64,000 nucleotides of DNA, taken from the NCBI GenBank assembly GCA_039586795.1, contig JBDHJS010000011.1, positions 1 to 64,000 on the forward strand. The letters run 5' to 3'. This DNA is from Gemmatimonadota bacterium (GTDB lineage: Bacteria; Gemmatimonadota; Gemmatimonadetes; Palauibacterales; KS3-K002). A program made the translations under genes and the position numbers. Position 1 is the first letter of the stretch. Every line of letters begins with the position of its first letter. This document shows positions 12,940-38,737 of the stretch, one piece after another. A model generated the notes under the pieces. The model was not told where the DNA came from and ran no database searches. It was given only the letters and a program-made list of their open reading frames with translations.

Positions 12940-13941
12940 CTAGATCGAGTGGATGATCTCTGCAGATGGTGCGCTCCGCGCAAGCAGCGGTCCTGCTGCA
13001 TCTCCGGCCATACCGAAGATCGCGGTACCCGCCGCGTCGGCGGTCATGCAATCGTCAGCCGCCACCGTGACGCTGCGCATGCGAGCCACCCGCGGCTCGC
13101 CCGTGACCGGGTCGAGCAGGTGGTGATAACGGCGCCCCTCATGCTGGAAGTAGCGGATATAGTCGCCGGAGGTGGCCACTGCCCGGTCACTCACTTCGAG
13201 AGTCTCGATGATCCCGTCGGGGTCCTCCGGGTCGCGGATGCCGATCTTCCACGGGTCGCCGTTCTCCGACACGCCCATCGCGTACAGATCGCCGCCCACA
13301 TTTACGATAGCGTTGTCGATTCCGTTAGATCGAAGCGACTTGACAGCGCGGTCGACGCCGTAGCCCTTGGCGATGCCGCCCAGGTCGAGTTCGACGTCGG
13401 GGTCGCTAAACAGGACGACGGGTGCGCCACCCCGCATGCCAACCTCCAGCGATTTGTATAGACCTCGCCCTGCCAACCCGCGAACCTCCTCGGGAGAGGG
13501 TGGCGACTGACGCTCGGCGAAGTCCCACAGCGCCATCGCCTTACCGATGCACGGATCGAAGGCGCCGTCGCTCGCCGACGCCCAGTCCATCGCACATTCC
13601 AATACCAGGCCCGTTTCGTCAGAAACATGAACCGGACCCTTGGCCGCGTACAGATTCGCGCGGCCCACGTCGGACTCGGAGTTGAACCATGACATCGTGC
13701 GCTCGACAAACCGTAGCTCGGCGATCGCCGCATCGATGGCGTTCTGGGCTTCTCTCTCGTTCCCGCCACGGTGGACTACCGCAAAGTCGGCGATCGTTCC
13801 CATCACCGGGACGCTGCGCCGTGTCAGTCGCTGGCGGTTGATGAACGAGACCGGCACCGTGAACACCGCGAAAGCGCCGATCCCCAGCCGAAGGAAGTCG
13901 CGGCGGGGGAATGAACGCAGTGAACGTTCGACTTCACTCAT
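12940..13941 (-). CDS. apbE: FAD:protein FMN transferase with Tat signal
   Basis: RRDFL twin-arginine, MGT, GAFDP, LDLGGIAKGYGVD, VGGD, ATSGDY, HHLLDP.TG. Confidence 0.95.
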   Translation of the reverse strand: MSEVERSLRSFPRRDFLRLGIGAFAVFTVPVSFINRQRLTRRSVPVMGTIADFAVVHRGGNEREAQNAIDAAIAELRFVERTMSWFNSESDVGRANLYAAKGPVHVSDETGLVLECAMDWASASDGAFDPCIGKAMALWDFAERQSPPSPEEVRGLAGRGLYKSLEVGMRGGAPVVLFSDPDVELDLGGIAKGYGVDRAVKSLRSNGIDNAIVNVGGDLYAMGVSENGDPWKIGIRDPEDPDGIIETLEVSDRAVATSGDYIRYFQHEGRRYHHLLDPVTGEPRVARMRSVTVAADDCMTADAAGTAIFGMAGDAAGPLLARSAPSAEIIHSI

Positions 13942-14099
13942 GATCTAACATCTCCGAGGTCCAAGAACTTGCAATCCGATTCGTCTACGCACGCCCCGTC
14001 GCAGTGGCCGCAACCCTCCGCTTCGTCCCTACCCCGGTTCATGAAACCGATGGCGACGAACAGCGCCGAGCAGGTGAGGACGGTCAGTAGCATCTCCAT
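13938..14099 (-). CDS. 53-aa single-TM Cys-rich protein, NqrM-like; not in the ORF track
   Basis: MEMLLTVLTCSALFVAIGFMNRGRDEAEGCGHCDGACVDESDCKFLDLGDVRS*; TAATG overlap with the rnfA stop and ATGA overlap with the apbE start. Confidence 0.8.
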   Translation of the reverse strand: MEMLLTVLTCSALFVAIGFMNRGRDEAEGCGHCDGACVDESDCKFLDLGDVRS

Positions 14100-14674
14100 T
14101 ACGAACTCAACAGTCCGGCAAAGCCCATGAACGCCAGCGACAGGATGCCGGCGATGATGAACACCAGGGCGTTGCCCCTAGCGATACCCGGTACTTTCAC
14201 GAATTCAAGATCTTCGCGGATCGACGCCATCAGCACAAGGGCCAGCGTCAGGCCGGCGCCGGCTCCCCAGGCGAAGAACAGCCCCTCGAAGAATGTGTAG
14301 CTCCGGTTCGTCTGCGAGATCGCCATGAAGAGGATCGCGCAGTTCGTCGTGATCAGCGGCAGATAGATCCCCAGCGCCCGAAACAGCGCCGGGCTCACCT
14401 TCTTGATCGTCATCTCGGTGATCTGCACCGCCGAGGCGATGACGAGGATGAACGAGATCAGCCTCAGGTACGGCGCGTAGGGCAGGATGAACGTGTTGAG
14501 GATCCAAGCGCAGACCGACGCCACGGTCAACACGAACACGTTGGCGGCGCCCATGCGCAGCGCTGTGTACACCTTGCCGGAAACGCCCATGAACGGGCAG
14601 AGGCCGAGGAAGTACGCCAGGGTGAAGTTGTTCACCACCATCGCCGAGATGAAGATCCAGGCCATGTTACCCAT
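14099..14674 (-). CDS. rnfA: Rnf complex subunit A
   Basis: NNFTLAYFLGLCPF, LGIYLPLITTNCAI, LSLAFMGF; start placed at 14674 by the TGATG overlap. Confidence 0.95.
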   Translation of the reverse strand: MGNMAWIFISAMVVNNFTLAYFLGLCPFMGVSGKVYTALRMGAANVFVLTVASVCAWILNTFILPYAPYLRLISFILVIASAVQITEMTIKKVSPALFRALGIYLPLITTNCAILFMAISQTNRSYTFFEGLFFAWGAGAGLTLALVLMASIREDLEFVKVPGIARGNALVFIIAGILSLAFMGFAGLLSS

Positions 14675-15330
14675 CAGGCGGCCCTCCCCACGGCGCCTTC
14701 CGGCAGCGTCCCGGCCCGTGCTCTGTCGGCTTTGCGCTTCTCCCACCAGTTCATCACCAGCAGGACGAACCCGATGGTCAGGAACCCGCCGGGCGGAAGG
14801 ATGAAGATGATCCACGGCTCATACCCGGAGCCAAACAACGGGTATCCCAAGAAGGATCCGTAACCCAGGATCTCCCGCACGCTACCCATGATCAGCATGG
14901 CAATCGTGAACCCGATTCCCACGCCCACGGCGTCCAGCAGCGAGCGGCCCACCGTGTTCTTCGAGGCAAACGCCTCCTGGCGACCGAGGATCATGCAATT
15001 GACCACGATCAGCGCGATGAACGCGCCCAACTCGGCGTGGATCTCCGGCACGACGGCCTCGAGCACCATGTCGGCGACGGTGACGAACGTGGCGATGATC
15101 AGGATGTACGTGGAGATCCGCACTTCCCCGGGAATGAAGTTCTTGAACAACGAGACCAACAGGCTCGAGCAGAAGAGCACGAAGAATGTGGCGGCCGCCA
15201 TGGCCAGGCTGTTCATCACCGTGTTAGAGACGGCCAGCGCTGGGCAAAGACCGAGCATCTGGATGAGTACCGGGTTCTCGCGCCAGATACCGCGGCTGAA
15301 GTCCTGACCCGGCGTCGTCTTCGTCGGCAT
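14674..15330 (-). CDS. rnfE: Rnf complex subunit E
   Basis: ENPVLIQMLGLCPALAV, LIVVNCMILGR, LPPGGF. Confidence 0.95.
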   Translation of the reverse strand: MPTKTTPGQDFSRGIWRENPVLIQMLGLCPALAVSNTVMNSLAMAAATFFVLFCSSLLVSLFKNFIPGEVRISTYILIIATFVTVADMVLEAVVPEIHAELGAFIALIVVNCMILGRQEAFASKNTVGRSLLDAVGVGIGFTIAMLIMGSVREILGYGSFLGYPLFGSGYEPWIIFILPPGGFLTIGFVLLVMNWWEKRKADRARAGTLPEGAVGRAA

Positions 15331-16010
15331 CAGTTGACCTCCTCCAGGTAGGCCTCCAGCATCGGCCCCAGCCTCTCCAGTTGGTTGTTGATGATCGCGA
15401 TTATGGTGCGCGACGAGATGGTCGCGCCGGTGATCATGTCCACTTCGTTAGCCGCACCCGTCTGGCGGCCCGCTTTAACTCCGGCGAGGGGCGCCTCGGG
15501 GCCTCTGAATTCCTGAACGAAGGCGCTGTCCTTCACGATCTTGTCACCCAGGCCCGGCGTCTCCTTGTGCCCCAGTACCTTCATGCCCAACACGACACCC
15601 GCCTCTGCATCGTAGCCGAAGATCAACTCGATGATGTCCTGGAACCCGGGCTCGCCGCCGGTGATCGCGTAACCGACGGGCGAATCTTCCTCGGTATAGC
15701 CGAGGAAGACCATCTCCAGCGTCGCCACATCGACCCCGGCCGGCGGTGCTAACACGAGGTCACCGTCGTGGACGTAGAGCGTGTCCCAGCGGGCCGGCGA
15801 CGCGAGCACCTCCGACACCGCTTCCCTCAGTTTCAGCGCCTTGTAGGCCTGGATAGCCGGCTGCGTCGCCTGGTGCACGAAGACGATGAGCAGACCCGCC
15901 AACGCGCCCGCCGTGCTCAGCGTCATCAGCAATTTCAGCGACGAGGTTTCCTTCTGCTCGGGCGCGCCTTGCGCCTGCGGCAGCGGCCGTCCCTCGCCGT
16001 TCCCGCTCAC
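15330..16010 (-). CDS. rnfG: Rnf complex subunit G (FMN-binding)
   Basis: N-terminal TM, ETPGLG, flavinylation motif ITGATISS; GTG start at 16010 overlaps the rnfD stop. Confidence 0.93.
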   Translation of the reverse strand: MSGNGEGRPLPQAQGAPEQKETSSLKLLMTLSTAGALAGLLIVFVHQATQPAIQAYKALKLREAVSEVLASPARWDTLYVHDGDLVLAPPAGVDVATLEMVFLGYTEEDSPVGYAITGGEPGFQDIIELIFGYDAEAGVVLGMKVLGHKETPGLGDKIVKDSAFVQEFRGPEAPLAGVKAGRQTGAANEVDMITGATISSRTIIAIINNQLERLGPMLEAYLEEVN

Positions 16011-17005
16011 GACGCCGCCTCCGAGACCTGGGTTCCGAACACCTTGGGTTGGGTCCACTGGTTGAGGTACGGGACCAAGGCGTTCATCAGCAGGATGGCG
16101 TACATCACGCCCTCGGGCAGTCCGCCCCACAGTCGAATGATCACGATCAGCGCACCGACACCGGCGCCGAAGATCCAGCACGCCTTGTTGGTGACGGGCG
16201 ACGTAACCATGTCAGTGGCCATGTACCAGGCGCCCAGCATGAGGCCGCCGGCGAACAGCATGAACTGCGGCGTCGGATAGCTGTCACTGATCATGTGGAT
16301 GAACTGTGAGAGGACCGCTACGCTGATGAAGATGCTGACCGGGATGCGCCAGTTGAGGAAGTTGCGCAGCGCCAGGTACAGCCCGCACACGATGATGATG
16401 ATGGCCGACGTCTCACCCGCCGAGCCGCCGATCGTCCCCATGAACAACTCGCGCGTCCCCGTCGCTACACCATCGAACTTCATCAGACCGAGGGGCGTCG
16501 CGGCGGTGACCGCATCGACCTGGGCGCTCATCAAGGGGAGCGACAGCTGCCCCGGGTAGAGATCCCAGAAGCTTCCGGTGGCCACAGGCCACGTGGTGAT
16601 CGCCAACGGAAACGCCGCCTGCAAGAAGGCACGTCCCAACAGGGCCGGGTTGAAGGTGTTCTGGCCCAGGCCGCCGAAGATCAGCTTGCCGACACCTATG
16701 GCGAATATCCCACCCAAGAACGACATCCAGAGGGGGAAGCTTGGGGGCAGCGTCAGCCCCAGCAGCAAACCGGTGATCGCTGCCGATCCGTCAACCAGCG
16801 ACCCTTTGGCGCCGAATACGACTTCGGTAAGGAGCGCCCCGAACGTCGCCGAGGCGACGACCAGTAAGGCACCCACGCCGAAGAAATAGCCGGAGGCGGC
16901 GATGATGGGGACCAGGCTACCCACCACGTTCCACATGATCGTCGGCGTCGTGGCCGGCCCCTTCAGGTGAGGCGATGCGGTGACGAGGAAGCGCGGCTCG
17001 CTCAT
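16007..17005 (-). CDS. rnfD: Rnf complex subunit D
   Basis: SPH, DGSAAITGLLL, FGGLGQNTFNPAL, VTAATPL FMN site, GETS, MATDMVTSP, PEGVMYAIL. Confidence 0.95.
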   Translation of the reverse strand: MSEPRFLVTASPHLKGPATTPTIMWNVVGSLVPIIAASGYFFGVGALLVVASATFGALLTEVVFGAKGSLVDGSAAITGLLLGLTLPPSFPLWMSFLGGIFAIGVGKLIFGGLGQNTFNPALLGRAFLQAAFPLAITTWPVATGSFWDLYPGQLSLPLMSAQVDAVTAATPLGLMKFDGVATGTRELFMGTIGGSAGETSAIIIIVCGLYLALRNFLNWRIPVSIFISVAVLSQFIHMISDSYPTPQFMLFAGGLMLGAWYMATDMVTSPVTNKACWIFGAGVGALIVIIRLWGGLPEGVMYAILLMNALVPYLNQWTQPKVFGTQVSEAAS

Positions 17006-18336
17006 GCCGCCGACTTCGCTTTCGCTCTGCGCAATGCTGTGCGGGTCACGGCGAATAGCTGCGATAGCGGGATATTGGACGGGCACACATAGGAACAGCA
17101 GCCGCACAGCATGCAGTCCCAGATATGGTGGTCCTCCGCATCCTCGTAGCGTCCCGCGATGGCGATTTTACCCAGCAGCTGCGGATTCAAGAATACGGGG
17201 CACGCATCAAGGCAGTAACCGCAGCGGATACAGCTATAGGATTCCTGCCGTCGAGTCTCATCTTTCGAAAGTACGAGTACGCCTGTCGTTCCCTTGAGAA
17301 CCGGGACATCGAGGCTCGCTTGCGGCGCGCCCATCATCGGGCCGCCGAAGACGATCTCGTGAGCGTCATCTGTCATGCCGCCGCACGCCTCGATCAGTTC
17401 GCGCACTTTGGTGCCAACCGGAACGATGAGGTTGGCCGGTTCCTTGACGCCGCGGCCGGTGACGGTGACGATGCGCTCGATCAGCGGCAACCCTGTCTCG
17501 AACACCTCGGCGATCGTCGCCGCCGAGCCGACGTTCTGCACGACGACGCCCACGTTCATCGGGAGCTTGCCCGAGGGCACCTCACGACCCAGCAGCGCTT
17601 CGATCAGCATCTTCTCAGCGCCCTGGGGATATTTCACAGTGAGCGGGTGGACGGTGACGTTGATATCGGTCGGCAGCGTGGCGCGGATCGCCTCGATGGC
17701 ATCAGGCTTGTTCTTCTCGATCCCGATCATCACACGGTCGACGCCCAGCGCCTTCATCATGATGCGAATGCCCAGGTGCACGCGCTCCGGGTACTCCGAC
17801 ATGATGTGATGGTCGGTCGTCAGATACGGCTCGCACTCGCAGCCATTGATGATGACCGTGTCGATCTTCGCGTCCTCAGGCGGCGACAGTTTCACGTGCG
17901 TGGGAAACGCGGCGCCGCCCAACCCCACCACGCCGGCGTCCTGCACCGCCTGCACGATTCCCTTGGGTGATAGCCCCTCCCACTCGGGGACGATGCGCGG
18001 CCGCGGCACCTGCGCCGAGTACTTCTCCACCGCGATGCGCACCGCGGTTTGATAGTCGCCCAACGGGTGCGGCCACAGCTCGACCGCCGCCACCGTGCCG
18101 CTCGCCGAGGCGTGGACCGGCGACGAGATGAAGCCGTCGGAGACAGCTATCTTGTCGCCGCGTTCTACCTTATCGCCTTCTTTGACGATGAGCTTGGCGG
18201 GCGCCCCTGTGTGCTGACTCAAAGGCAGGACAACTTCGTCGGGGAACGGCATGCGCCGGATGTTCTCGGCCTCCGTGAGCCCCTTGAGCTCCGGCGGATG
18301 TACTCCGTGCCTGAATGTTAGGCGTTGGCCCAGCAT
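17002..18336 (-). CDS. rnfC: Rnf complex subunit C
   Basis: QHTGAP, GVVGLGGAAFPT, INGCECEPYLT, YPQGAEK, GGPMMG, CIRCGYCLDACP and CMLCGCCSYVCP. Confidence 0.97.
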   Translation of the reverse strand: MLGQRLTFRHGVHPPELKGLTEAENIRRMPFPDEVVLPLSQHTGAPAKLIVKEGDKVERGDKIAVSDGFISSPVHASASGTVAAVELWPHPLGDYQTAVRIAVEKYSAQVPRPRIVPEWEGLSPKGIVQAVQDAGVVGLGGAAFPTHVKLSPPEDAKIDTVIINGCECEPYLTTDHHIMSEYPERVHLGIRIMMKALGVDRVMIGIEKNKPDAIEAIRATLPTDINVTVHPLTVKYPQGAEKMLIEALLGREVPSGKLPMNVGVVVQNVGSAATIAEVFETGLPLIERIVTVTGRGVKEPANLIVPVGTKVRELIEACGGMTDDAHEIVFGGPMMGAPQASLDVPVLKGTTGVLVLSKDETRRQESYSCIRCGYCLDACPVFLNPQLLGKIAIAGRYEDAEDHHIWDCMLCGCCSYVCPSNIPLSQLFAVTRTALRRAKAKSAA

Positions 18337-18396: not shown

Positions 18397-21300
18397 TTAG
18401 TTAAACGGCTCCGCTCGCTTGAGCCACTTCTCCAGGTCCTTCTCCTTCGGATTCAGCGGCGTCCCCGGGTGGATGATCTTCACCGGGCAGCGCTCGGCGG
18501 CCATTACGATCTCTCTGAACGTGCCGGCCTTCGCATCCTTTATGAACGCCTGCTTCTTATCGTCGTAGGCGAACAGCTTCTTGTTCAGGTTCGTGCATTC
18601 GTTACAGCTGGTGCAACGGAGCGTCTCGATATACGGCTCCATGGCGAGGGCTTCTTCACCCTCTTCTTCTTCTACTGCCGCGGGCGCCGGCGAGGACGTG
18701 GGCGCGGGCGGGGCGTCAGCGACAGCTACGCCGCCGTCGCCGGCGGGAGCTGGAGCGCCGCCGCCCAGGTCGGACACGTCCATCGTCAGCGGTTGCAGAC
18801 CCGTCGTCTTTGCGGCCTTCGTCAGCAAGTCGGTCACTGTCATGTCGCCGTTGCCGGCACGCAGTAGGCCTTCCGCCATGCGGCGGGCCACGAACTGCGG
18901 GTAGCGAGTTCTGAGATCGGCCAGCTTCGCTTCGTACTCGGCGCGCAACGCCGCGACCTTCTCCTCGAACTCGGTTTCCAGCTCGGCCTCGACGACGCCA
19001 CGAGCGTCATCGCTGACCACCTGGCCGTCCATCTCTCGCAACTGGTTCCAGAGCAACAGGCGGTCCTCGGCCAGCTCGACGATCTCGTCCGAGACCGAGA
19101 CGCGGCGCAGCTTCTTGTCCGGTCCGATGCTATAGATGAAGGGCCGTTCGCCGTTCCGCTCTTCCTTTGGCATCGCCACGTACTCGTGGAACGGGATCAA
19201 CCCGTCGTCGTCCGCATCCGCCGGAATGCCCTTGAAGTGCTTCTTGAAGCGCGCCTCGGTGGCCGCCCAGTCGGCGATGGTCATCGGCAACTCCATCACC
19301 TGCTCGGCGCCTTCGTCGTCCACATACTTGAGCTCGTAGCTCGGCCACGTCTCGTCCTGGTCCGGGTTGCCATCCAGGTTGATGCAATCGGCCAGCGACG
19401 GACCGCCATCGGGGTCGTAGACTAGGAATGGGAAGGCGCGGCTCTCCAGCGATAGCTTGGCCGCCTGCGTCGCCTGGTCATCGCCCAGGCCATGCTCGGG
19501 CGGACACGGGCAATGCAGCACGAAGACCGCCGGACGCCGGCTGTTCAGCCCCTGGATCACACCGGCCAGCAGGTGCGACGGCAGCGCCTGCGAGGACTGC
19601 AAGACAAACGTGCCGCGGTGTGCCATGGCCAGCAGCGCCATCTCCTTGCGGGTCTCTTCCTTCCCGTGCTGGTCCTTTCCGAACGCAGCCATGTCGGAGA
19701 CCTGGCCGGTGAAGCCACTTGTGCAGGCCTGGCCACCGGTGTTCGAGTAGACCTGGGTATCGAGAACGATGATGCGAATCGGCTTGCCGGACGCCATGAG
19801 CCGCGAGGCGTTCTGGAATCCAATGTCCATCATGGCGCCGTCGCCGCCCACCGCGAAGATCGGCGGACATAGCTTGAACTCCTCATCGCTGAACTGACGC
19901 CAGTCGAACTTAGAGAAGAACGGTTCGTCGGTCTCCGGCTTGTACTCGCCGCTCACTTCCAGTTCGGCGCGGCGGATCGCGATGAACCCATCGCTCATCT
20001 TCCGCATGTGACCCTCGAAGATGCCGATAGCAATCGAGGGTGCGTCCTGGAACAGATGGTTGGTCCAGGGGAACGGGTACGGGTTATAGGGATAGGTGCT
20101 TCCCCAAACGGACGAGCAGCCCGTCGCGTTGGTGAAGCCCGTCACCGAACGGCCCTTGCCGCTCGGCCCTTCCTTGTAGCGCCAGTGGAGGTCCTTGAGA
20201 TCGCGAATCATCTCCGCGATCCGTTCGACTTCGGTGCGCTTCGACTTCTCCAGGGGCACGTCCACTTCGCCGGAGTCGTCGGAGCTCACCGAATCGAGAT
20301 CCGCCTCCGAAGCAAGCAGCTCCCGGGCTTTCGCATCCAGCCCGGCGATAAGCTCCTCGATGTGCTTCACGTGTTTCTCGACCCGCGGCTGCATCACGGC
20401 GTTCACCGCCGCCAATATCAAGTGGATTCCCGTCTTCTCGCCGCACCCCATGCAGGAACCGTCGCCGCCGAACATCGAACGGTAGTTCTCTTTCTTGAGC
20501 AGCAGCGACGACAGCACGCCGATACCTTCGTCTAGGTTCGCGATGTTGATGTAGCGGTCGTCGGTATCCGGCAGCCACTCCCACATCTTCCAGTTGCGGC
20601 GCAGCTTCTCGACCACCTCATCATCTTGCTTCACCGTGATGAGCGCCTTGTCCGGGCAGACCTCCACGCAGAGGTTGCAGCCCTTGCAGGCGGTGGGGCT
20701 CACCGTGATCGAGAGCAAACCGCCGGTCCCCTTCTCCTGGGACTCGGGCAGATCGTAGAACGGCGCCGTCTTGGCGATTGGGAACTCGGCCAGCGCCGAG
20801 TAGACCGGGGCGAACTCCTCGTCCAATTGGGCGCGCTTCTCGGCGTCCCAGCCCAGTTTGTCCACCACCTGCTTGTACGCTTGGGAGACGATGTCGGCGA
20901 AGTTGCTGACCGGCACACCCTTCATGATGCGCCGCGACTCGTTGGCCACGTGCTTGCTGATCTGGCGCAACTTGTCGAAGGAACGGCCGTTGGAGCTCGA
21001 GGCGATCGCCGCATCGAGAATCTGCTCCACCGTGTTAACCATGCCCGGGATCGCCGCATCCGGACAGACGACCCAGCACTGGCTACAGCCCGTGCAGTTC
21101 TCCGGGACGAACTCCGGTACCTCGAACCGCACGTCGGTCATGTCGCGGATCGTACTGGTCGCCGCGGGTATGGCACTGATCGCGGCGAACGGGTCGGCGA
21201 TCGGCTCGTCGCCCGACTTGTACAGGTGAGCGACCTGCTCCCAGAAGCGGCCGGGGTTTCCGATACCGTCGCGCCATCCTTCCCCGTCCATCTCCGCCGG

Positions 21301-23448
21301 CATCTGCGGCGTCTGCGCCGCCTCGGCGCCCTCATCGCTCATCGCGGCGGCGCCCAGCACGCTCGTTTCATCGAAGCCGCGCTTGATCACGCGAACGTTG
21401 TCCTCAACCACACGCTCGCCCAGGTGCCCGAACTTCTTCTGCAGCTGTTTGCGGATTCCCTCGAACAGCGAGTGCTCGTCCAGTCCTTCACGCTCCATCA
21501 GACCGGCCGTGCGGAAGAACGCGCCCATGAACGCGGCGCCCTGCATCCGGTAACGCAGCTCGGGATCTGAAGCCTCGTCGGACGCGATCTTGAACCCGTC
21601 AACGAAGTAGACTTTGATGTCCTTCTCTCTGATCTCGCGTCGCGCGCCCGCCGGGAACGCGTCCCACAGCTGTTCGGCCGTTAGGTCGCTCTGGATCACG
21701 AAAGCGCCGCCCTCCGAGAGGCCCGCCAACGGGTTCGAGTGTCGGAACACGTTGGGGTCCGGAGAAAGCACGACGTCCACGTGCTTGAGCTCGCTGTTCA
21801 GACGGATCGCTTCTTTGGCCAGCGTGCCGTAGAACGTCGTCGGCTGCCCCTTCTTCTCCGATCCGTACTTGGGGTTCGCCTTGATGTGCCAGCCGAGCAA
21901 CTCGAACGCGGTCATCGCCACGTTCTTGCCCGTCGTGATCGCGCCCCAGCCACCCACGGAGTGGATGCGGAACGAGACCGAGTCCTTGGGCATCAGGTTG
22001 ATATTGCCGGCGGAATCGAGAGCCAGGTGCGAGATGTCCGGGTACGACTCCAGCAGCTTCTCCTGCCAGATCTGGAGCTTCGGCAGCCGAGTGCCTTTGC
22101 GGACGAAGTCGATGCCCAAGTAGAACAGGCGACGACCATCACCCTCCGGCATTGCGTTCTTCACCGCGGCGATCAGATCTCCGGGCTGCAGGTCGCGACT
22201 TCCCAGCCCGTAGACGCCGGAGAAGAACTCGGGAACCTCTTCCGACTTGAGAGCGGCGAGGCCGGGGTGCGGCAGCGAGCCGCTCTTCGCCCGACCGTTC
22301 TCCACACCCTTTGCCATCGCGGCACGGATCTCACGTACGAGCGGCAGATCGACGGCCAACGGCTGGTCGGTGCGCTCCAGCACGACGACGGACTTCTTGC
22401 CGCGCAGCAGCTTCGTGAGGATGTCCGCCGGGAAGGGCCGGAACATAGTGACGTTGACGACGCCGACCTTGACGCCGTGCTCGTCGCGCATGTGGTCGGC
22501 TACTGCCTCGGCGTTCCAGACCATCGAGCCCTGGCCGAGGATCACGATCTCCGCGTCATCCAGCCGATAGCCCGTCGCGCGCTCGTATCGCCGACCGGTC
22601 AATTGGAAGAACTCCTCCATCGCCTGGTCGGTCAGCGCCTGAACGTGGTCGAAGTAGAAGGGGCGCTGAGCGGCGACGCCCTGGGCGTAGCTGTCCTGGT
22701 TCTGGACCACACCGATCATCGCTGGATAATCCAGGTCGAACATCTCGGGTATGCGGCGGCGCTTCTCTCCGAAGACCATCCGCTGGGCGGGAGTCGGCGA
22801 CTCGATGATGTCCGAGGGATCACCCAGGTACTCTTTAACCAGCTCGCGTTCCGGCAGCATCACCGATTCGATCACGTGGCTGGTCAGGAAGCCATCCTGC
22901 GCGCACACGCCAGGCGTCAAAGCGAGTTCGGCGATACGATGCGCGATCAGGTTCAGATCGGCGGTCTCCTGCACGTTCTTGCCGAACAGCTGGAAGAAGC
23001 CGGTATCGTCGATAGCGTGATAGTCATCGTGCCCGGCGTGCACGTTGAGCGCGTGCTTGGTCATCGCCCGGCAGGCGATGTTGAGCACGTACGTCAGGCG
23101 CTTGCCCACGGCCGCGTAGAGCGACTCGTGCATGTAGGCGATGCCCTGGCCGCTCGAGAAGTTCGTGGCGCGCAGGCCGGTCATGCTCATGCCGGCGGTG
23201 ACCGCGGCGGCGGCGTGCTCGCCTTCCGGCTCGAAGAATATGAGTTTGCGACCGTTCACGTTGTGACGGCCCGCTGCGACGGCGGCGGCCCAACCCTCAC
23301 CCATCTGCGTCGAAGGCGTGATCGGGTACGCGCCCGCACCCTCGCTGCCCGCCGTTTCCATGGCGACGACGGCTTCACTTCCGTCCATCGCCTCCCGGGT
23401 GCCCGGGTACTTCGCGGTCGCTTCCTGTTTCGCTTTCTTCAGCATCAT
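18397..23448 (-). CDS. por: Fused pyruvate:ferredoxin oxidoreductase (NifJ-type) with insertions and an extra C-terminal ferredoxin domain
   Basis: YPITPS, EGEHAA, GGWGAITTGK, two CxxCxxCxxxCP, SCMGCGE, TGCSSVW, GGDG, YSNTGGQ, HCPCP; terminal CTSCNECT...ERCP. Confidence 0.93.
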   Translation of the reverse strand: MMLKKAKQEATAKYPGTREAMDGSEAVVAMETAGSEGAGAYPITPSTQMGEGWAAAVAAGRHNVNGRKLIFFEPEGEHAAAAVTAGMSMTGLRATNFSSGQGIAYMHESLYAAVGKRLTYVLNIACRAMTKHALNVHAGHDDYHAIDDTGFFQLFGKNVQETADLNLIAHRIAELALTPGVCAQDGFLTSHVIESVMLPERELVKEYLGDPSDIIESPTPAQRMVFGEKRRRIPEMFDLDYPAMIGVVQNQDSYAQGVAAQRPFYFDHVQALTDQAMEEFFQLTGRRYERATGYRLDDAEIVILGQGSMVWNAEAVADHMRDEHGVKVGVVNVTMFRPFPADILTKLLRGKKSVVVLERTDQPLAVDLPLVREIRAAMAKGVENGRAKSGSLPHPGLAALKSEEVPEFFSGVYGLGSRDLQPGDLIAAVKNAMPEGDGRRLFYLGIDFVRKGTRLPKLQIWQEKLLESYPDISHLALDSAGNINLMPKDSVSFRIHSVGGWGAITTGKNVAMTAFELLGWHIKANPKYGSEKKGQPTTFYGTLAKEAIRLNSELKHVDVVLSPDPNVFRHSNPLAGLSEGGAFVIQSDLTAEQLWDAFPAGARREIREKDIKVYFVDGFKIASDEASDPELRYRMQGAAFMGAFFRTAGLMEREGLDEHSLFEGIRKQLQKKFGHLGERVVEDNVRVIKRGFDETSVLGAAAMSDEGAEAAQTPQMPAEMDGEGWRDGIGNPGRFWEQVAHLYKSGDEPIADPFAAISAIPAATSTIRDMTDVRFEVPEFVPENCTGCSQCWVVCPDAAIPGMVNTVEQILDAAIASSSNGRSFDKLRQISKHVANESRRIMKGVPVSNFADIVSQAYKQVVDKLGWDAEKRAQLDEEFAPVYSALAEFPIAKTAPFYDLPESQEKGTGGLLSITVSPTACKGCNLCVEVCPDKALITVKQDDEVVEKLRRNWKMWEWLPDTDDRYINIANLDEGIGVLSSLLLKKENYRSMFGGDGSCMGCGEKTGIHLILAAVNAVMQPRVEKHVKHIEELIAGLDAKARELLASEADLDSVSSDDSGEVDVPLEKSKRTEVERIAEMIRDLKDLHWRYKEGPSGKGRSVTGFTNATGCSSVWGSTYPYNPYPFPWTNHLFQDAPSIAIGIFEGHMRKMSDGFIAIRRAELEVSGEYKPETDEPFFSKFDWRQFSDEEFKLCPPIFAVGGDGAMMDIGFQNASRLMASGKPIRIIVLDTQVYSNTGGQACTSGFTGQVSDMAAFGKDQHGKEETRKEMALLAMAHRGTFVLQSSQALPSHLLAGVIQGLNSRRPAVFVLHCPCPPEHGLGDDQATQAAKLSLESRAFPFLVYDPDGGPSLADCINLDGNPDQDETWPSYELKYVDDEGAEQVMELPMTIADWAATEARFKKHFKGIPADADDDGLIPFHEYVAMPKEERNGERPFIYSIGPDKKLRRVSVSDEIVELAEDRLLLWNQLREMDGQVVSDDARGVVEAELETEFEEKVAALRAEYEAKLADLRTRYPQFVARRMAEGLLRAGNGDMTVTDLLTKAAKTTGLQPLTMDVSDLGGGAPAPAGDGGVAVADAPPAPTSSPAPAAVEEEEGEEALAMEPYIETLRCTSCNECTNLNKKLFAYDDKKQAFIKDAKAGTFREIVMAAERCPVKIIHPGTPLNPKEKDLEKWLKRAEPFN

Positions 23449-24296
23449 GCTGCTTCACTCCCTGCAGGTTGGGGCTGGGAAACGAACTGCTGACCTTCGA
23501 CCCAGGTGATGGCGCCCGTCGGGCACCGCTCGATCGCCTTCAGGTCAGCAAGTTCGTTCAAATCGTAGTTGATGACGGCCAGACCGTTAACGATCTCGAT
23601 CAGACCGGGCGCCGCATCGGTCGCGCATAGACCGCAACCGTTGCAAGCAACTTTGCACAGTTCTTCCGCCTCATCGCCCTCGAGCAAGCTCTTGCACTGA
23701 ACGAGCAGCTTCTGCTCGACGGGCATGACTTCGAACAAGTCTCTGGGGCAGGCCTCGACGCAATCTTCACACGCCGTGCACAGATCCGGAATCACGACCG
23801 GCAGGCCAACCCCGTTCATGTAGATCGCGTCATAGTCGCAGGCCACTTCGCAATCGGCGAGGCCCAGGCACGACCACGAGCACCCCTTGCCGCCGGCGGC
23901 TACCGCCGCCGCCGCCCCGCAGGTCTGCACGCCCTGATAGTCGGCGAGTCGCACCGAGACGTGAGAACCGCCGGCACACAGTAGGCGCGCGACCCGTTTC
24001 ACCGCTTCACCCGCATCGACGCCCAGGTAATTCGCGATATCGACGACGGCATCCTCGCCCAACTGTGTGCACTGCGCCGGCTGGCGCGCACCATCGATGA
24101 CCTCCTCAGCGAAGGCGCGGCACCCCGCAGCACCGCAGGCGCCGCAGTTGGAGCCGGGCAACATCTCGTTGACCGCATCGATCCGCGGATCCTCCCACAC
24201 CTTGAGCTTCTTGTTCGCGAGCGCGATCAAGATCGCAAAGGTGAGAGCGACGCCGCCGAGAATCGCGACCGATAGCAGGATCGTTGAGATGCTCAT
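23445..24296 (-). CDS. rnfB: Rnf complex subunit B
   Basis: N-terminal TM, EDPRID...LPGSNCGACGAAGC, several ferredoxin motifs (CLGLADCEVAC, CTACEDCVEACP, CNGCGLC). Confidence 0.93.
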   Translation of the reverse strand: MSISTILLSVAILGGVALTFAILIALANKKLKVWEDPRIDAVNEMLPGSNCGACGAAGCRAFAEEVIDGARQPAQCTQLGEDAVVDIANYLGVDAGEAVKRVARLLCAGGSHVSVRLADYQGVQTCGAAAAVAAGGKGCSWSCLGLADCEVACDYDAIYMNGVGLPVVIPDLCTACEDCVEACPRDLFEVMPVEQKLLVQCKSLLEGDEAEELCKVACNGCGLCATDAAPGLIEIVNGLAVINYDLNELADLKAIERCPTGAITWVEGQQFVSQPQPAGSEAA

Positions 24297-24306: not shown

Positions 24307-25314
24307 TTACTCGTTCAGATCGGTGTTGCTCAGCAGCCAGGAGGCTAGCTTGTCGACCGACGTCATCTGGGCCGGCGCTGCGCCAGTGCTTTCAGCGACG
24401 CTGGCGGCCGACTCCTGGGCCGTCGAGAGCGCCCGCAACTGATCCAAATCCTCGTTCTGCTGGCGTGCGCTCATGCCACCCAACTTCTTCCGCGGCGGCT
24501 TCTCCGGCAGCTTCCCAACCTTGAGCCGGTCCTGCAGCCGCTCGCCGCCGGCCGAATCGTGGACGAACTGCGCCGCGTCAGCCGGCATCAGTGCGGCGAT
24601 GGCTGGCGCCGATGCTGCGGCGAACTTCTTCTCCAGCTCTTCCGCATCTGGTGTCTGGAGCACGAATGTCGACGGCGTGATCAGGCGAACCAGCGGCGCC
24701 GGTGGCGCCTCGCCGTTCACCAACAGCACGAGCTTGACGTTTCCATCCAGGAACTCGGCTAGCTCGCTCGCTACGAGATCCGAGCCCTCCAACTCGACCA
24801 CTAGCGGCGGAGACAGCTTTCGCTCGCCCGTGTTCCAGCCGTCGAACTCCAGCGGTTGCAGAAGATCGTCGGCCTTGCCGTTCAGCACGCCGAGCGTCGC
24901 CAGGCCAGCGACCCGGGCGGCACCGAAGGCACGGCCGATCTCGGCAAACCGATCCGCAACCGCATCCCGCAGCCGGTCGCCGGGCTTCAGCTTCAGGTAG
25001 AAGGCGTCAGCGCCGCTGGCCGACGCCGTTCGCAGAATGTCGAAGGCCTTCTCGACCTTCTTTATCGTCTCGGGGTCCTGGGCCTGTTTCTCCTCCGAAA
25101 CGAGGCTCTCGAACCGGCCGATATCGATACGGCCCTCCGCAAACTGGCCTAACCCCGCCGCGGTACTTCCATTGTCTTCCAGAGCGCCCTCGGCCTTATG
25201 CGTCGCCAGGTAGCCACGCACCTCTTCGACCGTAGTCACGACCAGGGACCGGTAGGTCTCGATCGGCTCGGCGAGCGCCTTGAGTGCGGCTTCCTTTCGT
25301 TCCTCAGACGGCAT
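24307..25314 (-). CDS. Hypothetical protein OrfX resembling a degenerate PFOR TPP-binding (beta) domain
   Basis: ATG at 25314 overlapping the korB end; ERKLSPPLVV and TFVLQT align with EFKLCPPIFA and TFVLQS of the neighbouring PFOR; no Cys, no GDG. Confidence 0.75.
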   Translation of the reverse strand: MPSEERKEAALKALAEPIETYRSLVVTTVEEVRGYLATHKAEGALEDNGSTAAGLGQFAEGRIDIGRFESLVSEEKQAQDPETIKKVEKAFDILRTASASGADAFYLKLKPGDRLRDAVADRFAEIGRAFGAARVAGLATLGVLNGKADDLLQPLEFDGWNTGERKLSPPLVVELEGSDLVASELAEFLDGNVKLVLLVNGEAPPAPLVRLITPSTFVLQTPDAEELEKKFAAASAPAIAALMPADAAQFVHDSAGGERLQDRLKVGKLPEKPPRKKLGGMSARQQNEDLDQLRALSTAQESAASVAESTGAAPAQMTSVDKLASWLLSNTDLNE

Positions 25315-26257
25315 AACGGTCCAACTCCTTATTGAGCAGCTCGACTCGCTCTTCCGCCGTGTGGGCGGGGAGCGTCCGCAACTCTTCATAGCGCGGCGCG
25401 TTCTCGTCCCTGTAGAGCACGCCGATACGCACTGTACCGCTCGGCTCAGCCAGGCGGCGCGCTTCATTCAGATTGCTGGGATCGTGCACCAGCTGGTTCT
25501 TGTAGACCTGTTCCAGGTCCGGCAGGTTGATCCCGTTTTCGTGCACCAGCAACTCGATGACATCCGGTTTGCGCACGGCCTCGTCATAAATCGAGGCGGT
25601 GTAGATCGGGCAACGCTGAAGAATCCGCACGAACGAAAAGCCCTTGTGCTCGTAAGCCTGCTTCAGCGTCTCGTACAGGTGAGCCGGAATCCACTCCGCC
25701 GTCTGCGCGACGAACGACGCGTTGGTCACGCCCAGCGTTCCGGAAAGCGGGTTCAACGCGCGCAGATAGCTACCTTTCGGTTGCGTGTTGCTGGGGAACT
25801 CCGCCGGAGTCGTCGGCGATGTTTGGCCCTTCGTAAGCCCGTACATGTTGTTGTCGAGCATCAGGGCCACCATGTTCACGTTGTAGCGGACGGCGTGGAT
25901 CCAGTGCCCGGCGCCGATCGAACAGCAGTCTCCGTCACCCATCACGGCGAAGACATCGAGCTCTGGGCGCTCTAGCTTGATGCCCGTTGCCACCGGCAGG
26001 GCACGACCGTGCAGGCCATGAAAGCCGTACGTCTTCATGTAATGCGGGAAACGACTCGAACAGCCGATTCCGGAAACGAATACCGTGTTCTCGGGCTTCA
26101 GCTGCTTCTCTTCCAGCAGTCGCTGCATCGAGGTCAGGATGCTGTGGTCGCCACAGCCGGGACACCAGCGCGCCACCGCGCCCTCGTAGTCCTCCAGCTC
26201 GAAGTGGCGGTCGTCCTCTATTCCGCAGCTCAGTAACGAGCCTCCGTGGTGCGTCAT
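25304..26257 (-). CDS. korB: 2-oxoacid:ferredoxin oxidoreductase beta subunit
   Basis: RWCPGCG, SGIGCSSR, LHGRALP, GDGD, NNMYGLTKGQTSPT, LQRCP; true start at 26257 (ATGA overlap with korA). Confidence 0.93.
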   Translation of the reverse strand: MTHHGGSLLSCGIEDDRHFELEDYEGAVARWCPGCGDHSILTSMQRLLEEKQLKPENTVFVSGIGCSSRFPHYMKTYGFHGLHGRALPVATGIKLERPELDVFAVMGDGDCCSIGAGHWIHAVRYNVNMVALMLDNNMYGLTKGQTSPTTPAEFPSNTQPKGSYLRALNPLSGTLGVTNASFVAQTAEWIPAHLYETLKQAYEHKGFSFVRILQRCPIYTASIYDEAVRKPDVIELLVHENGINLPDLEQVYKNQLVHDPSNLNEARRLAEPSGTVRIGVLYRDENAPRYEELRTLPAHTAEERVELLNKELDRYAV

Positions 26258-28167
26258 ACCTTCACCCCCATCTCCAGTCGCCGCTTGATCGCGTCGAAGA
26301 TGTTGCCCGGACGCAAAGGCTGTCCGGGAACCCGCGACCAGCAGTCGATATCCACCAGCGTCGCGGCGCGCAGCACCCAGGCCAGCTGGGCATAGCGCCG
26401 GTTTTCTTCCGTGATATACGGAGCGTTGATCTTGTCGCTGTAATTGATCTCCACCGTCATCACCCGCTCGAACCGGCTGAAGATCTCTTTCAGCCCCGGC
26501 TGCAACGGCGAGATGAACGTGAGGTGCGTCGACGAGACTGAAAGCCCTTCGGCTCGCGCACGATCTACGGCTTCCTCGATGGCGCCCCTCGTGCTGCCCC
26601 AGCCGACGACCAGCAGTTCGCCGGAATCGCCGCCGTGCACCGGCGGCGGCTGAAGCGTCTGCTGAAGGACGGCGAGCTTGCGACTGCGCATCTCGCAACC
26701 AAGCTCGTGGCTGTCCGGGTCGTAGGCGATCTTCGACCATTCGTTGTGCGCCAGGCCAGTGGCGATATACTCGCCGCCCGGCTGACCGGGAACGCGCCGC
26801 TGCGACAGGCCCGTCTTCGGATCCCAGTCGTAAGGCGGCTTGTCCTCCGGGATCGGGGCCAGCGTGATCGGCGCCTGCTGCCAGCGCGGGTCGAGCTGCG
26901 GCCGTGGGAACGGCGTCACGCCGGTCGCCAGGTTCGCGTCCGTCAGCACGATCACTACCGTACGGAACGCCTCGGCGATCCGTCGGGCGGTGGTCATCAC
27001 GTGGAAACAGCCCTCGATGGTCGATGGCGCGATCACGACGTGCGGCGCATCGCCGTGCTGTCCATACAACGCCGTCAGCAGATCCGACTGTTCCACCTTG
27101 GTCGGTAGGCCGGTGCTGGGGCCGCCGCGCTGGACGTCCACCACGACCAGCGGCACCTCCAGCATGACGGCCAGGCCCAGGAACTCTTGCTTGAGCGAAA
27201 GGCCCGGACCGGAAGTGATGGTGTAGGCAACCTTCCCCGCGTAGGAAGCGCCGATCGCGACGCCCACCGCGGCGATCTCGTCCTCGGCCTGGTGCACCAC
27301 GCCGCCGAATCTGTCGTATACCTCGCTCAGGTAGTGAGAGGCCGATGTGGCCGGCGTGATCGGATACATGGAGCAAAGCTCCATCCCCGACGCGATCGCG
27401 CCCATGCCGATCGCCTCGTTCCCGTTCATCACCACCTGCGGGACGTCCGACTTAATCGTCGGCACCTCGATCCGGAAATCGAGGTTCTCTTTCGCCCACT
27501 CGTATCCGGCTTCCAACAACTGGATGTTCCGCTCGGTGATCTCCTTCGCCTTCTTCCGGAACTGGTGCGCGATCTGGCCCCTGATGAGCTCGATGTCGCG
27601 ATCGTAGACCCAGGTGATCAAGCCGAGGGCGAACATGTTCTTCCCGCGACGCACATCCTCGGCGATCTTCAGACATTCGGCTTCCATCGGGACTTCGATG
27701 ATCCGGTAGTCCCTCTCGGACAACACCTCCATCGCGTCTTTCCACTGCTGCTGAATGTCTTCGTCCGGATGATCCTTCCACATGTTCTCCAGAAGGATGA
27801 TCGCGTCGTCCGCCAACGCGCCCAGCTGATGCCGGCCCAGCAGCACCTGCTCGTTGAACGCCACCACCAGGTTCGTCTCATCTCCCCAGTTGGTGATCGT
27901 ATCGCTACCGAACCGAACTCGGTTTCCGCTTCCACCCTCTATACTGCGCGGCGGCGGCTGGATCTCCGCCGGGATGATCTCCACCGTCCAGGCGCCGTTG
28001 CCCATCTTGGCGCACACCGATCCGAACGTCTGACCGCACTTCTGCGCGCCCTCACCCGAGTCGGAGACGATCTCTACCGTGTGCTCCGGCACCTGGATGA
28101 TTCTCGGACCTTTCTTCTTACCGCCGCCCGATTTCTTCTTCGTTGACGTCTGCGCTTTCGTCGCCAC
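26254..28167 (-). CDS. korA: 2-oxoacid:ferredoxin oxidoreductase alpha subunit (gamma-alpha fusion)
   Basis: DSGEG, PAEI, GNEA, YPITPATS, QAEDEIAA, TSGPG, QRGGPSTGLPT, GWGST. Confidence 0.93.
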   Translation of the reverse strand: MATKAQTSTKKKSGGGKKKGPRIIQVPEHTVEIVSDSGEGAQKCGQTFGSVCAKMGNGAWTVEIIPAEIQPPPRSIEGGSGNRVRFGSDTITNWGDETNLVVAFNEQVLLGRHQLGALADDAIILLENMWKDHPDEDIQQQWKDAMEVLSERDYRIIEVPMEAECLKIAEDVRRGKNMFALGLITWVYDRDIELIRGQIAHQFRKKAKEITERNIQLLEAGYEWAKENLDFRIEVPTIKSDVPQVVMNGNEAIGMGAIASGMELCSMYPITPATSASHYLSEVYDRFGGVVHQAEDEIAAVGVAIGASYAGKVAYTITSGPGLSLKQEFLGLAVMLEVPLVVVDVQRGGPSTGLPTKVEQSDLLTALYGQHGDAPHVVIAPSTIEGCFHVMTTARRIAEAFRTVVIVLTDANLATGVTPFPRPQLDPRWQQAPITLAPIPEDKPPYDWDPKTGLSQRRVPGQPGGEYIATGLAHNEWSKIAYDPDSHELGCEMRSRKLAVLQQTLQPPPVHGGDSGELLVVGWGSTRGAIEEAVDRARAEGLSVSSTHLTFISPLQPGLKEIFSRFERVMTVEINYSDKINAPYITEENRRYAQLAWVLRAATLVDIDCWSRVPGQPLRPGNIFDAIKRRLEMGVKV

Positions 28168-28437: not shown

Positions 28438-29277
28438 CTACAGGGCAGACCATGCCTGAGGACGGCGGAAACGCCACCAGGCGAACGCCGTAGGGACGAG
28501 CGTCCAGAGAAGAAGTGAAGCGAAGCAGAGGGCGATCACGCCGCTGGCGCCCAATGAAGTCATCCAGGCCAGGCCAACCGGGCCGAGCAGACTGCCGTCA
28601 GGATCCAGGCTGGCGATCACGCCAAGCCGAAAAGCTTCCACCGGATTGCCGAGCGCCCAAGCGCTGAGCACCAGCCTTGGGAGACCCCAGCGGAGTGTCG
28701 CGCCCATGATGGCCAGCGTGCCGAAGCCGACGGCGACGATCCAGACCACGATGCCGGCACCCGTCGCCCGGGCGCGTGTGGTGGCGATGACCGAGCAGAA
28801 CAGACCAACGGCCACGAAAGTCTCGGCCAACAGAAGCGTGAGAGCGAGCAGCAACGCGACGGGTCGCCAGGGTGTTCCGTTCAGGGTAGCGACCGCGCCC
28901 GCGAAGCCAAACCCGATGAGCAACGACAGCGCCACGGCGAGGCTGACCCCGATCCACTTTCCCCAAAACAGCTCGCCGAACGAGATCGGCTGGCTGACCA
29001 GGTATTCGAGACTCCCCATCTCTCTTTCTCCTGCCACGGCGGCGGTGGCCGGGAAGAGCGCCATCAGTGGTACGAACAAGAGCGCCAGGTGAACCAGCCC
29101 CGCCATGACCTTGGCAAAGCCGCGATAACCGTAGATGTCAGAGCCACTCAGCCCGAAGAACGTGAGGGCGAGAGCGCCCAGCAAGAAGACAGCGGAGTAG
29201 GCGATGAACCACCGCGACCTCAGCGACTCGCCCAGCTCTCGGCGCACGAGAGTGCGGATCACGCTCACCCGACTCAT
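28438..29277 (-). CDS. nosY: Nos ABC transporter permease
   Basis: Multi-TM, PLMAL...ERE.G.LEYL.SQP, NPVEAFR, LLGP; position in the nos operon. Confidence 0.9.
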   Translation of the reverse strand: MSRVSVIRTLVRRELGESLRSRWFIAYSAVFLLGALALTFFGLSGSDIYGYRGFAKVMAGLVHLALLFVPLMALFPATAAVAGEREMGSLEYLVSQPISFGELFWGKWIGVSLAVALSLLIGFGFAGAVATLNGTPWRPVALLLALTLLLAETFVAVGLFCSVIATTRARATGAGIVVWIVAVGFGTLAIMGATLRWGLPRLVLSAWALGNPVEAFRLGVIASLDPDGSLLGPVGLAWMTSLGASGVIALCFASLLLWTLVPTAFAWWRFRRPQAWSAL

Positions 29278-30182
29278 ATCTCGCCCTCGCCGAAGAAGCG
29301 CTGAACGATCTCCTCGAGCTGTGGCTCGACCACCCAGAAGTCATCGATCGCCAGATTCGATTCCTTCAGCCTCCAGAGCGCCTCCGCCCTCCCGGCCGCC
29401 GGGAGCTTCACGGCGACGTGGGTTCCGTTGGCCATGACCGCTTCGGGTTCAGCCAGGCTGAGAAACTTATCGCGTGCCGCATCACGGTCCTCTCGTCGCG
29501 TCCGCACCCACAGCCACGCATCGGCGCCCGCTCGGGCCCGGAGGTCACCCAGCCCGCCGTCGAACACGATGCGCCCCTCGTGAAGGATCCAGATTCGATC
29601 GGCTATCATTTCAACTTCGTCGAGGCGGTGCGAGGCGAGCATGAGCGTGGTCTCGGGGCTGACCTGGCGCAGCGCGCGCATGAACTCGCTGCGGGCGCGT
29701 GGGTCCAGGTTGGCCGTCGGCTCGTCCATGAGCAGCACCTGTGGATTCGAAGCAAGGGCGACAGCCAGCAGTGCCTTCTGCATCATGCCGCCGGACAGCT
29801 CGCGGAGCGCTAGACCGCCCGTCTCCGCCAGCGGCAGCCCGAACGCGTCCAGCTGCTCGGCAATCGTTTCGGCGGGTATACCGCGGAGTGTGGAGAAGAA
29901 CTCGACCATGGCGCTCAGCGACATGTGGAAGACCGGCGGCCGCTGTGGGACATAGCCGATGCGACCCCGCACCGCTTTGCCCGACGATGCCACGTCCGCA
30001 CCATCCACCTCGATCGATCCGTCGAACGACAGCACGCCCATCACGCAGCGCAGCAGCGTAGTCTTCCCCGCCCCGTTCAACCCGAGCAACGCCAGGCGCT
30101 GCCCGCGCTCGATTTCGAAGTCGAGGTCATCGAGCACTGACCGGGATGCGAAACGCTTGCTCAGCCCGTTGGCCTTGATCAT
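29274..30182 (-). CDS. nosF: Nos ABC transporter ATPase
   Basis: GLNGAGKTT, LSGG, LMDEP, SH; GGAGG RBS before the ATG at 30182. Confidence 0.92.
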   Translation of the reverse strand: MIKANGLSKRFASRSVLDDLDFEIERGQRLALLGLNGAGKTTLLRCVMGVLSFDGSIEVDGADVASSGKAVRGRIGYVPQRPPVFHMSLSAMVEFFSTLRGIPAETIAEQLDAFGLPLAETGGLALRELSGGMMQKALLAVALASNPQVLLMDEPTANLDPRARSEFMRALRQVSPETTLMLASHRLDEVEMIADRIWILHEGRIVFDGGLGDLRARAGADAWLWVRTRREDRDAARDKFLSLAEPEAVMANGTHVAVKLPAAGRAEALWRLKESNLAIDDFWVVEPQLEEIVQRFFGEGEI

Positions 30183-31528: not shown

Positions 31529-32124
31529 CAATCGGCCTTACGTCTGTTTCTGTACTCGATGACCAATGACAACGGCCCCAGCCCTCCGGCGATGAACATC
31601 AGGATAGCGCCGACAGCCGGCCAGCTGGCCACATGGAAGTTCGCGACTTGTGTCGTCCCGATGAACCGTGGTGTGAACGGTTCAATGGAGATGGGAGCGT
31701 CCGGTGACAGCGTGTGCCCGTACTCGTATAACCAGTGTTGAAAGTCCACGAGCATTACGATCCCGAAGACGACAAAGTCAATCCAGCCCAGAGCAGCGAT
31801 CTCCAGTCGCGCCACCATCATTGCCAACAGAGCGAGTGCCAGGAAGCGCATGATCAGGAAGGGAATGAACCGAAACTCAGGAAATTCGTTCGGCTCGATT
31901 TCTTTCATCCCGATGTAGTGGTTGAGGATGTTCACTTCCTCGATCTCACCAGCGACCTTGTGCGAATGGATCGACAGCGAGAGGCCCTCAGGGTATTGCG
32001 GCGCTTGCAACGTTATCGTCCACACCGGGAAGAACAGCGAGAGGATGAGGAGAGCTGCCGCGACACCCACGAGTACCCTCGAGGTGGGCGACAGATCTCC
32101 TCGGAACAGATCGACCGTCGTCAT
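31528..32124 (-). CDS. nosB: Clade II nos membrane protein
   Basis: WTITLQAPQYPEGL, INILNHYIGM-like motif (VNILNHYIGMK), YEYGH.L.P.AP, NF...SWP; four TM. Confidence 0.85.
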   Translation of the reverse strand: MTTVDLFRGDLSPTSRVLVGVAAALLILSLFFPVWTITLQAPQYPEGLSLSIHSHKVAGEIEEVNILNHYIGMKEIEPNEFPEFRFIPFLIMRFLALALLAMMVARLEIAALGWIDFVVFGIVMLVDFQHWLYEYGHTLSPDAPISIEPFTPRFIGTTQVANFHVASWPAVGAILMFIAGGLGPLSLVIEYRNRRKAD

Positions 32125-32126
32125 CT

Positions 32127-32516: not shown

Positions 32517-32534
32517 CGCTGATCTCCTTCTGGT

Positions 32535-34484: not shown

Positions 34485-34528
34485 GGGCTCTTCACTCCCT
34501 GTTGATGGTTAGCGCTTTCATCGCACTT

Positions 34529-38700: not shown

Positions 38701-38737
38701 AACGCCCGGTAAGACGGCGTAGCCATAGGAGGCAAAT

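Follow-up and report, generated by a model that had tools for sequence, protein, structure and literature searches.

In pyruvate:ferredoxin oxidoreductase (PFOR), domain VI binds thiamine diphosphate (ThDP) and the proximal cluster. Two-subunit 2-oxoacid:ferredoxin oxidoreductases (OFORs) have no domain V, and the subunit composition of PFORs was described in a 2026 review, in the portion of its text available, as still poorly understood (PMC13768988). Accessory subunits described there include the epsilon subunit of the five-subunit PFORs of Aquifex and Hydrogenobacter, which has no match to any of the seven PFOR domains, and methanococcal PorE, a polyferredoxin; both are encoded in por clusters, and the roles of such subunits are given as unclear or as electron transfer. 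Here we consider orfX, an unnamed gene in the first 64,000 nucleotides of contig JBDHJS010000011.1 from a Gemmatimonadota bacterium (GCA_039586795.1), a stretch referred to below as the window. The gene lies in the run korA-korB-orfX-rnfB-por-rnfC-D-G-E-A-apbE. The original prediction was that its product, OrfX, is a catalytically dead paralog of the ThDP-binding domain of the neighbouring Por and perhaps an adaptor bridging Por to KorAB or RnfB. We have found that orfX is, with very little doubt, a real gene with real homology to PFOR domain VI and a catalytically dead product. As a domain VI relic, OrfX is set apart from epsilon and PorE by the descriptions above. No cofactor-less domain VI subunit was found among the OFOR architectures in the available portions of PMC13768988 and PMC12337175 or in literature searches, and no characterisation of OrfX, or of its relative OrfY introduced below, was found in the literature searched.

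The resemblance to Por had been proposed from four segment pairings made by hand. The quoted segments are present in both proteins (OrfX 122, 155, 189, 213 and 234; Por 1147, 1181, 1218, 1277 and 1303), but pairwise BLASTP found no significant match between the two (best E 0.44), and pairings made by hand are by themselves no evidence of homology. It was profile-profile comparison that recovered the relationship. A profile of 146 OrfX sequences (A1) matched a profile of 55 Por sequences over 153 columns (probability 41%, E 2.8e-4), and with a wider set of 61 Por sequences OrfX 121-271 was aligned with Por 1146-1363 over 151 columns (probability 80.5%, E 1.3e-5), all four pairings falling in one collinear alignment. 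The OrfX-Por score was 44.7, against 20.5 ± 4.3 (maximum 35.3) for 40 block-shuffles and 22.1 for a reversed-profile control. KorA, KorB, RnfB, RnfC and Por 1-480 gave nothing better than E 0.08 against the OrfX profile, and Por 481-960 gave a weak 40-column match (E 0.004, probability 8%). Among 19,528 six-frame open reading frames (ORFs) of the window's own genome Por was the best non-self match, though only at E 0.088; a scan of 301 Gemmatimonadota genomes gave five weak secondary matches inside Por reading frames, and in 88 fetched loci (9,124 ORFs) the non-OrfX matches were almost all to Por, profile positions 120-177 falling on about Por 1146-1204. Taken with the matches that run through OrfY and the shuffle controls, these results establish common ancestry of OrfX with domain VI.

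The predicted OrfX fold is confident (predicted local distance difference test 92.8). In a Foldseek search the top ranks went to PFOR domain VI (Moorella thermoacetica 6CIN/6CIO/6CIQ; Desulfovibrio africanus 2C3Y/1B0P), with OFOR beta subunits (oxalate oxidoreductase beta 5C4I/5EXD; Methanosarcina PorB 9BT4) among them, and the best whole-domain alignment placed model residues 1-298 on 6CIN 812-1170. No match reached E ≤ 0.001; the structural comparison thus agrees with a PFOR-type fold by rank, but not by significance. No solved structure, PFORs included, was found to match OrfX by sequence; domain VI of the neighbouring Por does match solved PFOR structures by sequence, and OrfX matches Por by profile.

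While the YPITP, NATGC, GDG and NTGGQ motifs were present in all 55 Por sequences, the cofactor sites of domain VI have been lost throughout the OrfX family. GDG was found at the aligned site in none of the 146 members, a G-x-D-L relic of the D-G-A-D-L type being left in its place; NTGGQ was found in none, the loop of about 30 residues that carries it being deleted; and the Cys motifs of the proximal [4Fe-4S] cluster (CxGC, NxTGC and the late Cys) were likewise absent from all 146, the last cluster Cys having been deleted. The window's protein, as had been noted, contains no Cys, GDG or NTGG. One to five Cys occur in 107 of the 146 homologues at no conserved position, the best Cys column not exceeding 41/146. 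Both binding roles belong to domain VI in PFOR (PMC13768988), so OrfX, judged by its sequence, cannot bind ThDP or the proximal cluster in the known way. Compared with PFOR domain VI and OFOR beta, the first strand and loops are also deleted, and unlike domain VI of a one-chain PFOR, OrfX is a separate polypeptide with an N-terminal hairpin of its own. The motif tests place it outside the active beta-subunit family, and it probably acts via that family's subunit contacts.

The closest OrfX homologues are from Gemmatimonadota and are annotated as hypothetical proteins. The family comprised 307 matches among 8000 scored candidates, and 426 representatives at 50% clustering. No Pfam family was common to more than one of the 146 members (E 0.1), TPP_enzyme_C (PF02775) was found in none at E ≤ 0.1, and no NCBIfam match, PorB/KorB models included, was found for the window's OrfX. 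Its core has the near-invariant elements PAPLxRLxxP, Q220 and FxHxP, and the polar residues R165, E164, D190, Q220, H252 and R263 are invariant or nearly so. The ratio of nonsynonymous to synonymous substitution (dN/dS), a check proposed with the original prediction, had a median of 0.20 in 39 usable of the 40 closest locus pairs, which are not independent; in the same comparison it was 0.09 for KorB and 0.10 for RnfB. OrfX is under purifying selection.

The link between OrfX and Por was settled by a second protein. A scan of 400 Gammaproteobacteria with the OrfX profile gave one full OrfX and 12 weak matches, nine in large PFORs and three in a protein of about 820 residues, OrfY, which occupies the slot of OrfX between korB and rnfB. 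OrfY (536 matches among 8000 candidates) is found in Riftia, Ridgeia and Lamellibrachia symbionts, Sedimenticola and Endothiovibrio, and its database labels are 'ferredoxin' or 'pyruvate decarboxylase'. By profile-profile comparison it matched Por 709-1683 (probability 100, E 3e-102) and OrfX 11-278 (261 columns, probability 96.2, E 2.5e-9; score 74.0 against 20.1 ± 3.5 for shuffles). It is without both domain V cluster motifs and all ThDP motifs. Like OrfY, OrfX stands directly behind a korB of the subfamily described below and has the hairpin and a dead, cofactor-less domain VI. OrfX is, however, only 335 residues long, has no cluster and is accompanied by an intact Por, whereas OrfY retains remnants of the domain V region, the domain VI extension, the tail and a C-terminal single-cluster ferredoxin (Fer4_13), and has a dead Por beside it.

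The N-terminal hairpin of OrfX matched OrfY (E 2.7e-5) and had no significant match to Por (E 0.08). Since the bridge alignments join the two proteins and the hairpin is common to both and not to Por, OrfX and OrfY most likely descend from one dead ancestor; a quick tree agrees, with long-branch attraction possible. The proposed paralogy therefore stood as descent from domain VI, but not as recent duplication of the adjacent por. The profile alignments show a derivation of OrfX from the C-terminal half of a large Rnf-linked PFOR. The likeness of OrfX residues 283-330 to the Por tail had no statistical support (E 0.13). Two unusual proteins were also met. P0145 (457 residues), on a single 3.7-kb contig, is OrfX directly fused to a Por-type tail (47-54% identity to Por, 36-43% to OrfY) and ferredoxin, and is either a natural intermediate or a deletion or assembly chimera. 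At L188:5637-8567 an OrfY carries two tandem C-terminal ferredoxin domains and has neither rnfB nor por behind it.

Homologs of OrfX were not found mostly outside por/rnf loci. Among 86 OrfX loci, some of them taken from a contig already represented, korB lay directly upstream in 81/81 and rnfB directly downstream in 84/84, and por followed in all 74 with enough flanking DNA. The korB/orfX overlap was exactly 11 nucleotides in 68 of 73 loci, with a 190-nucleotide gap in one and four unscorable. The window's KorA and KorB have the (alpha-beta)2 architecture without domain V of two-subunit 2-oxoglutarate:ferredoxin oxidoreductases (OGORs) and OFORs (Magnetococcus marinus 6N2N; Sulfolobus 5B46/5B48). 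Those solved enzymes have no third subunit, and the window's KorB belongs to a separate subfamily, marked by 25 diagnostic residues that at least 90% of its 73 members share but no more than 15% of 14 ordinary KorBs have. In one Gemmatimonadales genome (L011:4082-6819) an ordinary korAB was seen directly upstream of a subfamily korAB.

Within the same 301 genomes OrfX was found in 52, the KorB subfamily in 52 and both in 51; since kin genomes are not independent, such counts describe a pattern and not a p-value. The one subfamily-KorB genome without OrfX (G299) has OrfY in its place, and in the one OrfX genome without a subfamily KorB match korB is frameshifted. The C-terminal region of Por (E < 1e-60) occurred in 53 of the 301 genomes and in 51 of the 52 with OrfX. 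In the 400 Gammaproteobacteria, subfamily korB was followed by OrfX (1) or OrfY (11) in 12/12 cases, whereas one of the two followed in 0/11 ordinary korB loci within the 1.1-1.4 kb examined. A subfamily KorB without OrfX or OrfY was never met in the samples searched. Por is found without either: in a one-contig genome (G134) it stands alone, lacking the C-terminal ferredoxin and with no korAB, orfX or rnf nearby, and four gammaproteobacterial rnfB-por loci (L133, L134, L142, L143) have no korAB or relic upstream. The relic thus follows one KorAB subfamily, and not Por, as its obligatory genomic companion. This KorAB subfamily also occurs in at least one planctomycete and in chemosynthetic symbionts.

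Of 11 OrfY loci, nine have rnfB and por next; in one the contig ends and one has neither. In the Por beside OrfY, YPITP, the EHAA Glu, the proximal-cluster Cys and GDG are gone in 9/9 cases, while both domain V cluster motifs survive in 9/9. It has no C-terminal ferredoxin in any of eight complete copies, while OrfY has one, so the operon carries a single tethered ferredoxin, which belongs to Por where OrfX is present and Por is intact, and to OrfY in the other form. At loci L135:1033-14745, L136, L187 and L189-L194 the gammaproteobacterial operon encodes both OrfY and a full-length Por that has kept only two clusters, each of them a dead PFOR derivative; in several of these loci korA is preceded by genes for an SdhA/NadB-like flavoprotein and a NuoF-like protein. 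In genome G591 a Por fragment followed by rnfC (L137) was seen on one contig and korAB-orfY-rnfB-dead Por on another (L189).

A tubeworm-symbiont cluster has been described with por, rnfB, por-like, korB, korA, nuoF* and frdx* (PMC6315080), which is the gene order of the OrfY loci found here. The available text of that study treated PFOR as functional and left por-like undiscussed; by its Table S1, por-like is about as strongly transcribed as korA and korB in the Escarpia symbiont, with log transcripts per million of 2.64 for por-like, 2.70 for korA and 2.98 for korB. From gene order and the presence of related symbionts' proteins in the OrfY family, Escarpia por-like is predicted to be OrfY. 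In another study korAB and a 'PFOR-like' gene dropped together under sulfide limitation (PMC11636981, available in part).

We regard it as quite probable that OrfX is, in some form, a non-catalytic subunit of the KorAB subfamily, and put at roughly 55% the probability that it specifically bridges KorAB to Por and RnfB. As the overlapping genes suggest, OrfX would be made together with KorB and might join KorAB through its retained domain VI helices, most simply by a domain VI-domain VI contact as in OFOR dimers. KorAB has a single cluster and lacks a ferredoxin domain; by docking this enzyme onto the Por scaffold, OrfX would let electrons from 2-oxoacid oxidation pass to the Por domain V clusters, the tethered C-terminal ferredoxin and RnfB, or in reverse, with no freely diffusing ferredoxin needed between KorAB and RnfB. 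In the gammaproteobacterial form OrfY would do the work of OrfX and carry the tethered ferredoxin, next to a dead Por with two wire clusters. The simplest reading is one assembly in which KorAB reaches RnfB via PFOR-derived clusters and OrfX is the minimal connector. A fuller version, which we hold only tentatively and at somewhat less than even odds, makes korAB-orfX/Y-rnfB-por-rnf one membrane-docked 2-oxoacid:Rnf supercomplex. PFOR-derived pseudoenzymes would there replace free ferredoxin, and OrfX would clamp KorAB to Por, giving two dissimilar oxidoreductase active sites a single tethered ferredoxin and a single wire to RnfB in common. Both PFOR-like genes of the cluster in sulfur-oxidising symbionts would serve purely as scaffold and wire, and the 'PFOR' credited to the cluster could therefore not make pyruvate.

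Two genomes (G299 and G579) have korAB-orfY without a neighbouring por or rnf, which weighs against a bridge. It was considered that OrfX might serve KorAB only, as an assembly factor, stabiliser, oxygen shield or regulator, for example by replacing one beta in a half-dead alpha2-beta-beta* tetramer. The exceptionless tie to the KorB subfamily and the gene overlap fit this, and so do those two loci. Against it, rnfB and por follow OrfX without exception, and a common assembly is suggested by the move of the tethered ferredoxin between Por and OrfY and by the survival of a dead Por that still has two clusters; we consider a KorAB-only role unlikely. A role confined to Por, with OrfX forming a pseudo-homodimer with Por domain VI that tunes or stabilises Por while KorAB merely shares the operon, would suit its descent from that domain, the dimeric nature of OFOR cores (PMC13768988, in the portion available) and the near-constant presence of Por in OrfX genomes. 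It is less likely still, as some Por proteins of this clade are not accompanied by OrfX, whereas subfamily KorB was never unaccompanied in the samples searched.

The few invariant or nearly invariant polar residues might instead mark a new catalytic or ligand-sensing function, for example the sensing of a nucleotide, a coenzyme A (CoA) ester or a 2-oxoacid. Most of them align with conserved structural positions of Por and OrfY; no known catalytic or nucleotide motif and no Pfam or NCBIfam family was recognised in OrfX, Walker A is absent, PF00004 was found in 0/146 members, and the Atlas look-alikes, which are AAA ATPases, all score at most 0.88. This we rate as improbable. That the likeness is due to chance or convergence, or that orfX is a decaying pseudogene, would agree with the failure of BLASTP, of sequence matches to solved PFORs and of Foldseek at the threshold given. 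It is largely refuted by the controlled profile matches via OrfY, the shared gene slot, the size of the family and its dN/dS, and is hardly to be expected. The bridge from KorAB to Por and RnfB is the reading that we prefer.

The features of the locus are collected in Table 1. Family matches support the names of korA, korB, rnfB, por and rnfC; those of rnfD, rnfG, rnfE, rnfA and apbE were assigned by inspecting the sequence and the order of the genes, with no family search. Besides its ferredoxin, the window's Por has a helical insertion and a helical tail. The genome also encodes E1 dehydrogenases, of the SucA type and others, as well as a second KorAB that is of the ordinary kind, so the operon is plausibly the low-oxygen route. 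A nosZ-nosD-ABC transporter cluster with a cytochrome c and an Rrf2 regulator (28438-35388) immediately precedes korA on the same strand, the nos names resting on inspection; nosZ/nosD adjoin the operon in 7 of 13 close relatives' loci. A saccharopine dehydrogenase-like gene at 11510-12741 is split in two ORFs covering C-domain positions 1-70 and 117-264, about 46 profile positions being missing between them, by either internal deletion or assembly error. Three genes clustered at 37624-40290 encode a synthase III-like protein, a thiolase and a ChsH2/DUF35 OB-fold protein, a set that we take to resemble the archaeal hydroxymethylglutaryl-CoA synthase/thiolase/DUF35 complex.

Table 1. Features of the korA-apbE operon in the window
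Feature	Positions	Strand	Description
korA	26254..28167	-	alpha subunit, domains III-I-II; YPITP intact; no ferredoxin domain; TIGR03710 above cut-off
korB	25304..26257	-	beta subunit, distinct subfamily; CPGC, GIGC, GDGD and cluster Cys intact
korB end/orfX start overlap	25304..25314	-	11 nucleotides
orfX	24307..25314	-	335 residues; cofactor-less descendant of PFOR domain VI; unnamed gene
OrfX residues 14-98	25021..25275	-	helical hairpin homologous to that of OrfY; helices seen in model
OrfX residues 121-272	24499..24954	-	eroded core of the ThDP PP domain
OrfX residues 283-330	24325..24468	-	conserved QQxEELxQL helix, variable Ala/Pro linker, conserved LAxWLL end helix
rnfB	23445..24296	-	TIGR01944 above cut-off
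por	18397..23448	-	1683-residue one-chain PFOR; all catalytic motifs intact
Por residues 1146-1363	19360..20013	-	region homologous to OrfX core
Por C-terminal single-cluster ferredoxin, about residues 1607-1660	18469..18630	-	Fer4_13, Fer4_15; low-complexity linker before
rnfC, rnfD, rnfG, rnfE, rnfA, apbE	12940..18336	-	rnfC: TIGR01945 above cut-off

A pseudoenzyme subunit is absent from the OFOR architectures in the available text of the 2026 PFOR review (PMC13768988). OrfX and OrfY, with hundreds of members, mark an Rnf-tied KorAB subfamily in Gemmatimonadota (52/301 genomes), at least one planctomycete and chemosynthetic symbionts. The adaptor claim is testable because a cultured host of the OrfX form exists, Gemmatirosa kalamazoonensis KBS708; in that species the 1.1-Mb plasmid 1 carries the entire operon (L144, NZ_CP007129.1:588154-589185), with apbE relocated between rnfG and rnfE. 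If true, the bridge would show how a soluble low-potential enzyme can be wired to Rnf without a diffusing ferredoxin and would explain a possible need for a third gene in heterologous expression of this KorAB subfamily. It would also correct metabolic models that count the 'por' of the cluster as a working PFOR where por is dead.
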